Assembly: GCF_030384885.1 (NCBI RefSeq)
Contig: NZ_CP128613.1
Reading direction: 5' to 3' (one strand)
DNA: 64,000 bases
Origin: Escherichia coli
GTDB taxonomy: Bacteria; Pseudomonadota; Gammaproteobacteria; Enterobacterales; Enterobacteriaceae
How positions within the stretch are numbered: position 1 is the stretch's first letter; each line of letters opens with the position of its first letter. Shown here in pieces: positions 1,559-14,350 of the stretch. The position numbers and the translations under genes are program-made. The notes below the pieces were generated by a model, which worked only from the letters and a program-made list of their open reading frames with translations, ran no database searches and was not told the origin of the DNA.

Positions 1559-2091
1559 ACCTAATATCCTTATATCCAGAAGTGGAGAGGTGCAAGATAA
1601 ATCAAAACACCATAATTACTGTTTGCAGAATAATTCCTTTCTGCCGGTCCGAAATGTGATCGTGGAGTCAATTCTGACGATGATCTGAAATAAGAATAAC
1701 GTCTGAACGGGTATAAGAAAATGCTTAAATCATCAAGTTTATATATTTTTACATTTCATTGATGAAATCAATGTAACTGCAATGAATTTTAATGATGATG
1801 CTTTTTGTATCTTGTTGATATTAATAGGGGGATTTGAATTCATGATGAAGCAATGATTTTTTAAAACGTTTTTTCATTTTTGCGATATGGCTCTCAGTAT
1901 ACGTGTTCTGTTAATTAATGAGCACGGTGATAATTAATGGCGAAATGAATGACGCTCATTTTCCACATCTTTGAGTTGCGGTTATTACACCATTTCAAAA
2001 ACTCAACGCCAGGTAATGCAGCCTATTGACTGGTTAAAAAGAAGACATCCCGCATGGGTACCAAAGACAACAAGGATTTCCAGGCTAATCT

Positions 2092-2230
2092 TATGGATTA
2101 ATCTGCTGCGTGCTCGGTGATTTGTCTGACAAATAAGCTTTTCCTTATGTCTTTTCCCGCTAAATTTATGCACGTTCTCACTGTAATTCTGCGATGTGAT
2201 ATTGCTCTCCTATGGAGAATTAATTTCTCG
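2092..2230. promoter_or_regulatory. Candidate araFGH control region with AraC half-site-like motifs
   Basis: TATGGATTAATCTGCTG at 2092-2108 fits the reverse complement of the AraC half-site pattern (nAGCn7TCCATA); a second TATGGA lies at 2211; exact operator positions not verified. Confidence 0.3.
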
Positions 2231-2354
2231 CTAAAACTATGTCAACACAGTCACTTATCTTTTAGTTAAAAGGTAATGCTTTGTTTTCCGATTAAATTAA
2301 CGAGAGTTATTCGTTTTTGCCCTACACAAAACGACACTAAAGCTGGAGAGAACC

Positions 2355-3344
2355 ATGCACAAATTTACTAAAGCCCTGGCAGCCATTGGTCTGGCAGCCG
2401 TTATGTCACAATCCGCTATGGCGGAGAACCTGAAGCTCGGTTTCCTGGTGAAGCAACCGGAAGAGCCGTGGTTCCAGACCGAATGGAAGTTTGCCGATAA
2501 AGCCGGGAAGGATTTAGGGTTTGAAGTTATTAAGATTGCCGTGCCGGATGGCGAAAAAACATTGAACGCTATCGACAGCCTGGCTGCCAGTGGCGCGAAA
2601 GGTTTCGTTATTTGTACTCCGGACCCGAAACTCGGCTCTGCCATCGTGGCGAAAGCGCGTGGCTACGATATGAAAGTCATTGCCGTGGATGACCAGTTTG
2701 TTAACGCCAAAGGCAAGCCAATGGATACCGTTCCGCTGGTGATGATGGCAGCGACCAAAATTGGCGAACGTCAGGGCCAGGAACTGTATAAAGAGATGCA
2801 GAAACGTGGCTGGGATGTCAAAGAAAGCGCGGTGATGGCGATTACCTCCAACGAACTGGATACGGCTCGTCGCCGTACTACGGGTTCTATGGATGCGCTG
2901 AAAGCTGCAGGATTCCCGGAAAAACAAATTTATCAGGTACCTACCAAATCTAACGACATCCCGGGGGCATTTGACGCTGCCAACTCAATGCTGGTTCAAC
3001 ATCCGGAAGTTAAACATTGGCTGATCGTCGGTATGAACGACAGCACCGTGCTGGGCGGCGTACGCGCGACGGAAGGTCAGGGCTTTAAAGCGGCCGATAT
3101 TATCGGTATCGGTATTAACGGTGTGGATGCGGTGAGCGAACTGTCTAAGGCACAGGCAACCGGCTTCTACGGATCACTGCTGCCAAGCCCGGATGTACAT
3201 GGTTATAAGTCCAGCGAAATGCTTTACAACTGGGTCGCAAAAGGTGTCGAACCGACCAAATTCACCGAAGTTACCGACGTGGTGCTGATCACGCGTGACA
3301 ACTTTAAAGAAGAACTGGAGAAAAAAGGGTTAGGCGGTAAGTAA
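2355..3344 (+). CDS. araF: L-arabinose ABC transporter periplasmic binding protein AraF
   Basis: 329-aa ORF MHKFTKALAAIGLAAVMSQSAMAENLKLGFLV... with signal peptide; matches remembered AraF; followed by araG and araH. Confidence 0.95.
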   Translation: MHKFTKALAAIGLAAVMSQSAMAENLKLGFLVKQPEEPWFQTEWKFADKAGKDLGFEVIKIAVPDGEKTLNAIDSLAASGAKGFVICTPDPKLGSAIVAKARGYDMKVIAVDDQFVNAKGKPMDTVPLVMMAATKIGERQGQELYKEMQKRGWDVKESAVMAITSNELDTARRRTTGSMDALKAAGFPEKQIYQVPTKSNDIPGAFDAANSMLVQHPEVKHWLIVGMNDSTVLGGVRATEGQGFKAADIIGIGINGVDAVSELSKAQATGFYGSLLPSPDVHGYKSSEMLYNWVAKGVEPTKFTEVTDVVLITRDNFKEELEKKGLGGK

Positions 3345-4942: not shown

Positions 4943-8295
<3,353 letters not shown>

Positions 8296-8301
8296 GTGCG
8301 G

Positions 8302-8730
8302 TTAATCTCCCGTAAGTGGAACTAACAGCACATCGACCTCACTTGAGGCAATCACTCTTTTCGCCGAGCAGGATGCTCGCGAAAAGAAACTGTGATTGTG
8401 ATTACCGCAAATCACCAAATCGAAATGATGTTTGCGACAAACCTCCAGAATATGTTCGCTTAACTCACCGTAGGCAATAAACGTCTCGTCAACGGGATAC
8501 CCCGCATCCTGAATTAACTTATCAAGAAAGCTTTGCGTTTCTTCCTGCATCACGCTGCGTAAATCTTCAAGCATCGGCGCGGCTAATTGATTGTACATTT
8601 CCGGGTCGGAAGCGAGAGTAATTAAACTGATGTGTCCCTTTACTGGCCTGGCGATAGATACCGCTTTTGCTAGCAGTTGCTGACTTTCCGGTGTAACCGC
8701 AACGGCGACAAGAATATTGCTATAGCTCAT
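8302..8730 (-). CDS. uspC: Universal stress protein UspC (142 aa)
   Basis: 142-aa ORF MSYSNILVAVAVTPESQQLL...; Usp fold; matches remembered UspC (YecG). Confidence 0.92.
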   Translation of the reverse strand: MSYSNILVAVAVTPESQQLLAKAVSIARPVKGHISLITLASDPEMYNQLAAPMLEDLRSVMQEETQSFLDKLIQDAGYPVDETFIAYGELSEHILEVCRKHHFDLVICGNHNHSFFSRASCSAKRVIASSEVDVLLVPLTGD

Positions 8731-9232
8731 AACCTGTTCCTTATTCTGTGAACTTCAGGTGACATTAAAGCTTTACTCCTAATGGAGAATCGACGCAATC
8801 CCAACTCAGTCAAACAGGTAAATATTAGTGTGATTATTAGTAAATACAATTAATCAATCACTCTCGGTGATCATATGATTTCAACTGTAATTATAAGAAA
8901 ATATTGTACTGATTCTCCATATTAAACAAGTGGTTAATATATCTAAAACATTTTGTTAACATTAAGTGGGTTGTTGCCTGTCTTTGCCTTTAATCAGTTT
9001 ATTGTGTTGTAAGTGCCTGTTTGTAAATAGATTAACTGATTTTGGATTTGACCAATTATTTATAGCAGATGATTATTTACGGTGAGTTATTTTAACTGTG
9101 CGAAACATCTCATTTCGATTATTACGGTTTCACTTTTGCTTACCATCGGTGTGAAAAACTTTTTAACAGATTGAAATACACCCAAAACAAAAGTATGACT
9201 TATACATTTATGTTAAGTAATTGAGTATTTTA

Positions 9233-9248
9233 TGTGATCTGCATCACA
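9233..9248. promoter_or_regulatory. CRP site of the flhDC class I promoter (TGTGATCTGCATCACA)
   Basis: Perfect CRP consensus palindrome about 270 bp upstream of the flhD ATG, consistent with the known CRP activation site centred near -72 of the flhD promoter. Confidence 0.75.
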
Positions 9249-9314
9249 CATTATTGAAAATCGCAGTACCCCTCCGTTGTATGTGCGTGTAGTGACGAGT
9301 ACAGTTGCGTCGAT

Positions 9315-9512
9315 TTAGGAAAAATCTTAGATAAGTGTAAAGTACCCCCTCTATTTGTAAGGACCTATTAAACCCAATAAGGTGGGGGCTGTTTTATTGC
9401 AGCTTATCGCAACTATTCTAATGCTAATTACTTTTTACCGGGGCTTCCCGGCGACATCACGGGGTGCGGTGAGACCGCATAAAAATAAAGTTGGTTATTC
9501 TGGGTGGGAATA
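9315..9512 (+). promoter_or_regulatory. Long flhDC 5' untranslated leader (approximate)
   Basis: Established knowledge: the flhD transcript starts about 198 nt upstream of the ATG; the CRP site spacing here fits a start near 9312-9315; boundaries approximate. Confidence 0.45.
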
Positions 9513-9863
9513 ATGCATACCTCCGAGTTGCTGAAACACATTTATGACATCAACTTGTCATATTTACTACTTGCACAGCGTCTGATTGTTCAGGACAAAG
9601 CGTCCGCAATGTTTCGTCTCGGCATAAATGAAGAAATGGCGACAACGTTAGCGGCACTGACTCTTCCGCAAATGGTTAAGCTGGCAGAAACCAATCAACT
9701 GGTTTGTCACTTTCGTTTTGACAGCCACCAGACGATTACTCAGTTGACGCAAGATTCCCGCGTTGACGATCTCCAGCAAATTCATACCGGCATCATGCTC
9801 TCAACACGCTTGCTGAATGATGTTAATCAGCCTGAAGAATCGCTGCGCAAGAAAAGGGCGTGA
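9513..9863 (+). CDS. flhD: Flagellar master regulator subunit FlhD (116 aa; alternative GTG start at 9504 gives 119 aa)
   Basis: [29 protein letters not shown]... matches remembered FlhD; track ORF starts 3 codons earlier at a GTG. Confidence 0.93.
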
Positions 9864-9865
9864 TC

Positions 9866-10444
9866 ATGAGTGAAAAAAGCATTGTTCAGGAAGCGCGGGA
9901 TATTCAGCTGGCAATGGAATTGATCACCCTGGGCGCTCGTTTGCAGATGCTGGAAAGCGAAACACAGTTAAGTCGCGGACGCCTGATAAAACTCTATAAA
10001 GAACTGCGCGGAAGCCCACCGCCGAAAGGCATGCTGCCATTCTCAACCGACTGGTTTATGACCTGGGAACAAAACGTTCATGCTTCGATGTTCTGTAACG
10101 CATGGCAGTTTTTACTGAAAACCGGCTTGTGTAATGGCGTCGATGCGGTAATCAAAGCCTACCGTTTATACCTTGAACAGTGCCCGCAAGCAGAAGAAGG
10201 ACCGCTACTGGCATTAACCCGTGCCTGGACATTGGTACGGTTTGTTGAAAGTGGATTACTGCAACTTTCCAGCTGCAACTGCTGCGGCGGCAATTTTATT
10301 ACCCACGCTCACCAGCCTGTTGGCAGCTTTGCCTGCAGCTTATGTCAGCCGCCATCCCGGGCAGTAAAAAGACGTAAACTTTCCCAGAATCCTGCCGATA
10401 TTATCCCACAACTGCTGGATGAACAGAGAGTACAGGCTGTTTAA
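9866..10444 (+). CDS. flhC: Flagellar master regulator subunit FlhC (192 aa)
   Basis: [27 protein letters not shown]... with zinc-binding cysteines near the C-terminus; ATG at 9866. Confidence 0.93.
10375..10401 (+). promoter_or_regulatory. Sigma-28 (FliA) promoter TAAACTTT-N11-GCCGATAT inside the flhC 3' end (motA/MotR promoter)
   Basis: Close match to FliA consensus TAAAGTTT-N11-GCCGATAA read in sequence; position fits the known motA class III promoter. Confidence 0.7.
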
Positions 10445-10502
10445 CTGATACGGTGTGGCGAAACATTCCAGCAGCGGTAACGACGTACCGCTGCTTTTTT
10501 TT
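10409..10502 (+). ncRNA. motR: Probable MotR small RNA (motA 5'-leader-derived, sigma-28 dependent); boundaries approximate
   Basis: Sigma-28 promoter at 10375-10401 followed about 70 nt later by an intrinsic terminator gives a roughly 95-nt transcript, as reported for MotR. Confidence 0.45.
10471..10502 (+). terminator. Rho-independent terminator downstream of flhC (3' end of MotR)
   Basis: Stem gcagcggta/taccgctgc, loop acgacg, followed by T8. Confidence 0.8.
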
Positions 10503-10570
10503 GCCCCAATCGCGCGTTAACGTCTGACGACTGAACATCCTGTCATGGTCAACAGTGGAAGGATGATGTC

Positions 10571-11454
10571 GTGCTTATCTTATTAGGTTACCTGGTTGTT
10601 CTCGGTACAGTTTTCGGCGGTTATCTGATGACCGGTGGAAGCCTTGGAGCACTCTATCAACCCGCTGAACTGGTGATTATTGCCGGTGCAGGGATTGGGT
10701 CGTTTATCGTCGGCAATAATGGCAAAGCGATTAAAGGCACGCTGAAGGCGCTGCCGTTACTATTTCGTCGCTCCAAATATACCAAAGCAATGTATATGGA
10801 TCTGCTGGCTCTGCTTTATCGGTTGATGGCGAAATCGCGGCAGATGGGGATGTTTTCGCTGGAACGCGATATTGAAAATCCCCGTGAGAGCGAGATCTTC
10901 GCCAGCTACCCACGCATCCTTGCGGATAGCGTCATGCTTGATTTTATCGTCGATTATCTGCGCCTGATTATCAGCGGTCACATGAATACCTTCGAAATTG
11001 AAGCCCTGATGGATGAAGAGATTGAGACGCACGAAAGCGAAGCAGAAGTCCCAGCGAACAGTCTGGCATTGGTCGGGGACTCACTTCCGGCGTTTGGTAT
11101 TGTCGCGGCTGTGATGGGGGTCGTTCACGCGTTAGGTTCAGCCGATCGTCCTGCCGCCGAGCTGGGGGCGCTTATCGCACATGCGATGGTGGGGACTTTC
11201 CTCGGTATTTTATTGGCTTACGGATTTATTTCCCCATTAGCGAGTGTTTTACGTCAGAAAAGCGCCGAAACCAGCAAAATGATGCAATGCGTGAAAGTCA
11301 CACTGCTTTCTAATCTGAACGGTTACGCACCGCCTATCGCCGTTGAGTTTGGTCGCAAAACGCTCTATTCCAGCGAACGTCCGTCGTTTATTGAACTGGA
11401 AGAGCATGTGCGTGCGGTGAAAAATCCGCAACAACAGACGACAACCGAGGAAGC

Positions 11455-11458: not shown

Positions 11459-14350
<2,892 letters not shown>

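Follow-up and report, generated by a model that had tools for sequence, protein, structure and literature searches.

A rare, divergent and most probably imported allele within an uninterrupted flhDC control region of Escherichia coli

The closest described relatives of the locus reported here are the flhDC control regions of Escherichia coli K-12 strains. In K-12, the DNA upstream of flhDC hosts repressor and silencer sites and is a hot spot for insertion sequences (PMC5493358), as also reported elsewhere for the uspC-flhD spacer (PMC4183435, PMC5007776). MG1655 lacking an insertion is poorly motile, and insertions in the spacer raise flhDC expression (PMC4183435, PMC11237407, PMC5493358). Even a thyA cassette placed in the spacer can activate flhDC, the likely mechanism being the displacement of upstream repressors (PMC4183435; see also PMC11237407, PMC5493358). 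Insertion of IS30 in the spacer has been found in wastewater strains only, with none among 845 host isolates (Zhi et al., PMC5007776), and, given suitable conditions, motility is seen in many natural isolates that lack an IS (PMC11836070). A second class for comparison is that of ‘switched’ intergenic regions, which are highly divergent between conserved genes in E. coli and have been linked to expression differences (PMC5890482); horizontal regulatory switching is attributed there to Oren et al. 2014, whose work we take as cited in PMC5890482.

We analysed a 64,000-nucleotide stretch of E. coli DNA (the window), in which the gene order is otsBA, uspC, flhD, flhC, motA and motB. The gene for uspC (8302–8730, minus strand, an ORF of 142 aa) is transcribed divergently from flhD (9513–9863, plus strand, ATG at 9513), which is followed by flhC (9866–10444, plus strand). 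These assignments rest on the ORFs and on the matching annotations of NZ_CP027579.1 (E. coli 2013C-4282, human stool, USA), which is 99.9% identical to the window over the spacer and flhDC-motAB. The initial annotation had described a uspC-flhD interval of about 780 bp at 8731–9512, and our measurement agrees, giving a spacer of 782 bp without IS elements and the same gene coordinates. It lies between divergent uspC and flhD and upstream of flhDC-motAB-cheAW, the position of the class I control region. Near its uspC end is a candidate uspC promoter (8890–8919, minus strand), a sigma-70-like TGGAGA-18-TATAAT with 10 of 12 consensus positions that points towards uspC; the number of sigma-70-like sites found in the region by the consensus scan is not above shuffle expectation. 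An Rfam scan of 8000–10600 at E ≤ 1 matched zero families, and MotR and AsflhD are evidently absent from Rfam or fall below its scoring. Within the coding region, FlhD carries the substitution A110S (codon 110, window position 9840), which sets it apart from K-12 FlhD and from the usual E. coli protein alike. The exact A110S protein bears the NCBI name ‘MULTISPECIES ... [Escherichia]’ and is recorded on 601 contigs.

We read this locus, with a probability of roughly 85%, as a native, uninterrupted flhDC class I control region in which 8955–9431 is a rare allele, most probably imported by recombination. The control system itself and its freedom from IS elements are already known and ordinary. 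Positions below are given relative to a start site placed at 9312 by aligning the window and K-12 leaders; the start site, the promoter hexamers and the binding-site assignments in the window are all transferred from K-12 by alignment.

The spacer is 90.4% identical to that of MG1655 with its IS removed (75 differing columns in a global alignment), while the flanking genes are 96–97% identical. The divergence is concentrated in a patch of about 480 bp (477 bp; 8955–9431, -357 to +120 of flhDC), whose sequence we call W-type. When the window was compared over 4,201 bp with 2020CK-00188, the nearest ordinary background, 56 of the 67 differences fell within the patch, corresponding to a divergence of 11.7% inside it against 0.30% outside (binomial P ∼4e-42). 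The alignments reveal a block-wise mosaic, in which 8731 to about 8945 equals common alleles, about 8955–9431 is W-type, and the alleles are nearly identical beyond. The heavy divergence is confined to AT-rich DNA between conserved elements, and the constrained core at 9161–9342, holding the CRP site, promoter, start site and RcsAB box, has only 5–7 differences from ordinary alleles.

A survey of 5,426 complete genomes demonstrated how rare this sequence is. The block at 8946–9160 (215 bp, -366 to -152) is at least 97.7% identical in five genomes and at most 85.6% identical in 5,372, with none between 85.6 and 97.7%, so that the distribution is sharply bimodal. Across the whole spacer, identity is at least 99% in one genome, 95–99% in six and 90–95% in 5,322; by contrast, flhDC-motAB is at least 99% identical in 29. 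A 451-bp core (8860–9310) is 80–90% identical in 4,689 genomes. W-type sequence is common to the window, MFDS1019527, MFDS1022581, N96 and 2017-02-2CC, and the carriers come from a human in the USA, cattle and food in Korea, a pig in Tibet and a human in Vietnam. They differ from one another by about 1% in the flanks, and in two of them the divergent sequence reaches further left, to about 8859. The same spacer with one difference (at 8991) occurs in at least two draft assemblies, and 23 other contigs were counted as carrying similar places. Given this recurrence in drafts and the number of contigs that record FlhD A110S, the patch lineage is rarer among complete genomes than among drafts. The spacer is thus not K-12-like, nor is it ancestral to the K-12 sequence, a feature overlooked in the initial annotation.

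A smaller cluster of differences is present downstream, in motB, where 12000–12105 holds 8–9 synonymous differences in about 105 bp relative to the three nearest relatives; 2013C-4282 has the cluster as well. The MotB protein is unchanged relative to 2020CK-00188, the sole relative of the three for which the translation was compared. The cluster represents a further small patch of recombination.

The sharp boundaries of the flhDC patch, its bimodal distribution, the boundaries that vary between strains and the near-identical flanks together form a signature of recombination, which leads us to regard the patch as most probably a recombinational import from a divergent Escherichia lineage. Homologous recombination would have brought in 8955–9431 in exchange for the resident silencer DNA upstream and the leader's first third, and would have left the CRP site, the -35 and -10 hexamers and the RcsAB box nearly unchanged. 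For scale, in the block at 8946–9160 the patch is about 15% divergent from ordinary E. coli, and a divergent Escherichia representative (L014), which is about 8% divergent from E. coli throughout, is 12–13% divergent from ordinary E. coli in the same block. Several candidate donors were considered. L014 was ruled out, as it differs from the patch by 18.6% in the block (40 of 215 positions), no less than ordinary E. coli, and both E. fergusonii, at 78–82% identity even in genes, and two divergent metagenome FlhD lineages are far too distant. Neither a patch-specific 24-mer nor a leader 26-mer gave any match in scans of metagenomes. A genome-contig scan with a conserved 26-mer recovered 14 species representatives, none with the patch sequence; these comprise Citrobacter, Salmonella and one divergent ‘E. 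coli’ (L014), with other Escherichia species missing.

The E. fergusonii locus has features of its own. In strain ATCC 35469 (CU928158.2, 1168310–1173768), otsA/uspC and flhDC are 78–82% identical to their E. coli counterparts, and the spacer aligns in two short pieces only. The locus is much more divergent than the genome-wide similarity between E. fergusonii and E. coli would lead one to expect.

The alternative that survives best holds that the patch is an old polymorphism within E. coli, with two long-lived flhDC regulatory alleles, rather than an interspecies import. The patch and L014 agree at positions where common E. coli differ (e.g. 9050–9054, 9103, 9110 and the 3' arm of the leader), which suggests that the patch retains ancestral states. 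Several carriers also differ in flanks and boundaries, and the donor species was not found among those compared (L014, E. fergusonii and the two metagenome lineages). However, a polymorphism under long-term maintenance would be odd at so low a frequency (five of 5,426 complete genomes, without intermediates), and a block about 15% divergent, equal to or above the interspecies value of 12–13%, sits between flanks that are 99.7% identical. We consider long-term maintenance within the species unlikely, if by no means negligible.

A further explanation is that the patch arose in place in one lineage by accelerated local evolution, through relaxed or positive selection or hypermutation. The whole spacer does evolve faster than its flanks in all comparisons, and the leader segment at 9343–9394 has at least six alleles in 13 sequences. 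Nevertheless, to accumulate 56 changes in 477 bp while the flanks diverged by 0.3%, the local rate would have to rise about 40-fold, and finding the same allele in strains whose flanks are about 1% apart, with different left boundaries, is a signature of transfer and not of descent. The sharply bimodal block identities also oppose it, and we regard such an origin as very improbable.

Import by recombination concerns the sequence of the spacer; its integrity was assessed separately. The initial annotation had reported an interval without a transposase ORF or IS-like repeats, and each of our comparisons bears this out. The longest ORFs touching the spacer are of 40 and 43 aa, and no direct or inverted repeats of at least 12 bp are present in 8600–9650. 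A sensitive blastn search of the spacer against 72,556 plasmid records returned 20 records and no IS. Records with matches over most of the spacer hold this chromosomal uspC-flhD locus itself, filed as plasmid, and what remains are short, weak matches (E about 0.2 in those listed). Any IS fragment in the spacer would have matched thousands of records in this IS-saturated collection. Local blastn with IS1H (from MG1655) and IS5 (from W3110) gave only chance matches to the spacer (≤18 nt, E ≥0.7), and zero matches at E ≤1e-5 across the whole 64-kb window. An IS fragment overlooked by eye had been named beforehand as the observation that would overturn the claim, and the similarity searches turned up none. 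An unrecognised degraded or novel IS, or a remnant of one, for which we can cite only the general fact that the spacer is an IS hot spot (PMC4183435, PMC5007776), is effectively refuted by a length (782 bp) equal to that of IS-free alleles, by the alignment of each column and by the lack of repeats, plasmid-database matches, IS1/IS5 similarity or any ORF above 43 aa.

Alignment to the MG1655 and W3110 sequences upstream of flhD located the insertions in those strains and confirmed that the window is uninterrupted. All spacer columns align with IS-free alleles, which are 777–782 bp in length, while the MG1655 spacer is 1,555 bp owing to IS1H (768 bp). The 8-bp target duplication of IS1H in MG1655, CATTTATG, corresponds to window 9205–9212, and in W3110 and K-12 HMS174 the IS5 junction is at window-equivalent ∼9213–9220. 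The window therefore holds both K-12 insertion targets intact (9205–9220). They occupy -107 to -92 relative to the start site, a short distance upstream of the CRP site, and the window sequence is unbroken across both insertion points. The spacer has no IS with a target-site duplication, the mark of an IS-activated allele. The statement that an IS element in the MG1655 lineage occupies this interval and raises flhDC expression is thus borne out, its position by our alignment of IS1H and its effect by published work (PMC4183435, PMC11237407).

One GenBank entry preserves a W3110-type junction in an unexpected setting. HM037272.1 (B. thuringiensis CT-43 plasmid pBMB0558) contains, at 2075–3094, a K-12-like uspC and spacer up to the window-equivalent of 9217, followed by 105 bp of the end of IS5. 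This E. coli segment probably entered the deposited sequence from the cloning host.

To place the IS-free state in the species, we used the 451-bp core (8860–9310) as a query, which is short enough that even an IS1 splits the match. It matched in one piece in 5,268 of 5,414 matching complete E. coli genomes and in two places in 141. The split cases listed are K-12 derivatives, and one that was inspected, HMS174, carries IS5 between uspC and flhD. The IS-free share of complete genomes is therefore about 97%, and an IS-free flhDC spacer is the species norm, ordinary for natural E. coli. The ‘ancestral arrangement’ ascribed to this strain accordingly holds for the IS-free state, which is this norm; it does not hold for the sequence, which, at 90.4% identity and with its divergent patch, is not the K-12 ancestor. 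For the same reason, to call the region ‘more tightly regulated’ is to extrapolate from K-12.

We then examined the CRP site. The palindrome reported at 9233–9248 is exactly there (TGTGATCTGCATCACA), with a perfect TGTGA-N6-TCACA core centred at 9240.5. This places it 71.5 bp upstream of the start site (-71.5), the class I distance, a value that relies on the start at 9312 transferred from K-12 by alignment. The K-12 flhDC CRP site is likewise said to be centred at -71.5. The pattern TGTGA-N6-TCACA, with 0.05 occurrences expected in the window, is present twice, a number that none of 100 shuffles reached. Compared with K-12, the window has TCACA in place of TCACG and A in place of G just 5' of TGTGA, and it matches the 22-bp CRP consensus at 16 of 22 positions as against 14 of 22. 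This is no speciality of the strain. The window CRP 34-mer (with TCACA) is identical in 4,466 of 5,426 complete E. coli genomes, while the K-12 variant (TCACG) is found in 413, many of them laboratory strains. In a set of 31 sequences that includes Salmonella enterica subspecies, ten Citrobacter species, divergent Escherichia and three K-12 strains, the perfect core stands at an invariant distance from the RcsAB-box anchor in all 28 non-K-12 members, and the three K-12 strains are the only deviants. The ‘consensus CRP site’ of the initial annotation is thus real as a perfect core and is also the commonest state in E. coli. On this distribution, the perfect TCACA core is both common and ancestral, and the K-12 TCACG a derived deviant. 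For users of the K-12 reference, this means that its TCACG is a derived, weaker-looking CRP site and the window type the ancestral one.

The other perfect CRP core in the window, and the only one besides that of flhDC, is TGTGATTTGCATCACA at 427–442. Some 85 bp downstream of it is a 28-codon ORF (526–612) that matches NCBIfam NF033642 (stress response protein AzuC; E = 1.3e-21). The azuC gene is under carbon-source control, which the CRP core at 427–442 fits.

The flhDC promoter (9277–9305, plus strand) consists of a -35 hexamer, TTGTAT (9277–9282), a 17-bp spacer and a -10 hexamer, TACAGT (9300–9305), which were read off the sequence and placed relative to the start site. A simple sigma-70 consensus scan missed it, as expected for a weak promoter dependent on an activator such as CRP. 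By extrapolation from K-12, this weak sigma-70 promoter (TTGTAT-17-TACAGT, start 9312) would depend on cAMP-CRP bound at -71.5. The segment at 9269–9342, which includes the promoter core, start site, RcsAB box and first GGA, is identical to K-12. A polymorphism of the -10 hexamer is present at 9302, where the window and K-12 have TACAGT and 06-00048, 2020CK-00188 and Z0117EC0005 have TAAAGT.

Further upstream, the AT-rich DNA may hold repressor and silencer sites like those that IS insertion would displace in K-12 laboratory strains. One conserved island stands out, the 29-bp TTACGGTGAGTTATTTTAACTGTGCGAAA at 9077–9105, centred 221 bp upstream of the start site. It is largely conserved, with few substitutions, in two contigs that are 82–87% identical (L037 and L038). 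The island is a candidate PapX/FocX site, and would match the published site sequence. It lies where this site has been placed in uropathogenic E. coli, at -220 (PMC6246914).

The flhDC 5' leader, aligned to that of K-12, spans 9312–9512 (plus strand) and is 201 nt long. The K-12 leader is reportedly 198 nt, and the AsflhD annotation of MG1655 ends exactly 198 nt upstream of the ATG, consistent with this length. At its 5' end, the RcsAB-box-like TAGGAAAAATCTTA (9316–9329, plus strand) includes the first CsrA-type GGA (9318–9320) and is invariant across Escherichia, Salmonella and Citrobacter; on the basis of the literature, 9316–9329 is a putative RcsAB box and the GGA a putative CsrA motif. 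A second GGA lies at 9361–9363. The 3' part of the leader (9395–9512, plus strand) is conserved, with only two differences from K-12 in its 118 nt (at 9431 and 9473), and ends in the Shine-Dalgarno region, with GGGTGGGA at 9502–9509. The window thus contains each feature that characterises the ∼198-nt leader, namely the 5' RcsAB box, two GGA motifs and a conserved region adjacent to the Shine-Dalgarno sequence. In K-12, ArcZ, OmrA/B and OxyS pair next to the Shine-Dalgarno region (PMC3634460). The earlier description of a long leader targeted by sRNAs and CsrA agrees with the 201-nt length, the two GGA motifs and the conserved Shine-Dalgarno-adjacent region, with the sRNA pairing resting on that study. 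As in K-12, the leader would combine an RcsAB box, two CsrA-type GGA motifs and an sRNA-pairing region next to the Shine-Dalgarno sequence.

Around the second GGA, the leader is far more variable. The segment at 9343–9394 (+32 to +83) has 13 differences from K-12 and is the allelic hot spot introduced above, its six or more alleles being drawn from 13 Escherichia sequences. What distinguishes the alleles is mainly the length of two homopolymer runs, one of C and one of G, whose predicted pairing encloses this GGA. A long hairpin (9330–9408, plus strand, +19 to +97), with the second GGA near its top, is predicted for each allele, at -22.8 kcal/mol for the window, which has the stronger predicted stem (C5/G5), and -16.1 kcal/mol for K-12. 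RNAalifold applied to the hairpin gave a covariation term of 0, with double changes in two of 26 pairs, and the leader does not fold more stably than shuffled sequences (z-scores -0.3 to -2.0). Given the covariation term and these weak z-scores, we dropped the idea of compensatory evolution or a proven structure, and the hairpin stands as a weakly supported prediction of the folding model.

The IS-free spacer with a perfect CRP site is found in almost all natural E. coli, so it matters little in itself. [quoted passage not shown] The patch offers a clean natural example of promoter-only recombination at a master regulator, and could be used to gauge what share of flhDC control belongs to the -360 to -150 region and the 5' leader. 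A bolder proposal is that the patch is a cross-species import that exchanged the upstream silencer DNA together with the leader's 5' third, which is sensitive to CsrA and RNase E, and spared the CRP-promoter core. The lineage with the patch (five of 5,426 complete genomes, and 601 or more contigs bearing the linked FlhD A110S) would then control its flagella differently. We hold this to be doubtful; if true, it would show a way in which the motility master switch can be rewired in nature independently of IS elements.

Set against the known systems, the window shares with the IS-activated flhDC alleles (IS1H in MG1655, IS5 in W3110 and BW25113 derivatives, and IS30 in wastewater strains) the locus and the IS1H and IS5 target sequences, and differs from them in having no insertion. 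It resembles the K-12 flhDC class I region in its flanking genes, spacer length class and CRP-to-start distance, but is unlike it in the divergence of about 15% across -366 to -152 and in a leader that is 3 nt longer with 13 differences in +32 to +83. With switched intergenic regions, it has in common a divergent allele between nearly identical flanking genes, sharp boundaries and a patchy distribution across strains; unlike them, the window allele is still alignable, at 85–88% in its most divergent block, and is not unrelated sequence. The Piggy/Oren threshold for switching is <90% identity (PMC5890482), and at about 90–93% to most E. coli the whole spacer is just above it. Judged by sequence identity, the whole spacer (90.4% to K-12, and 90–95% by BLAST to most genomes) would be a borderline member of this class, and the spacer core, with a 215-bp block at most 85.6% identical in all but five genomes, a clear one.
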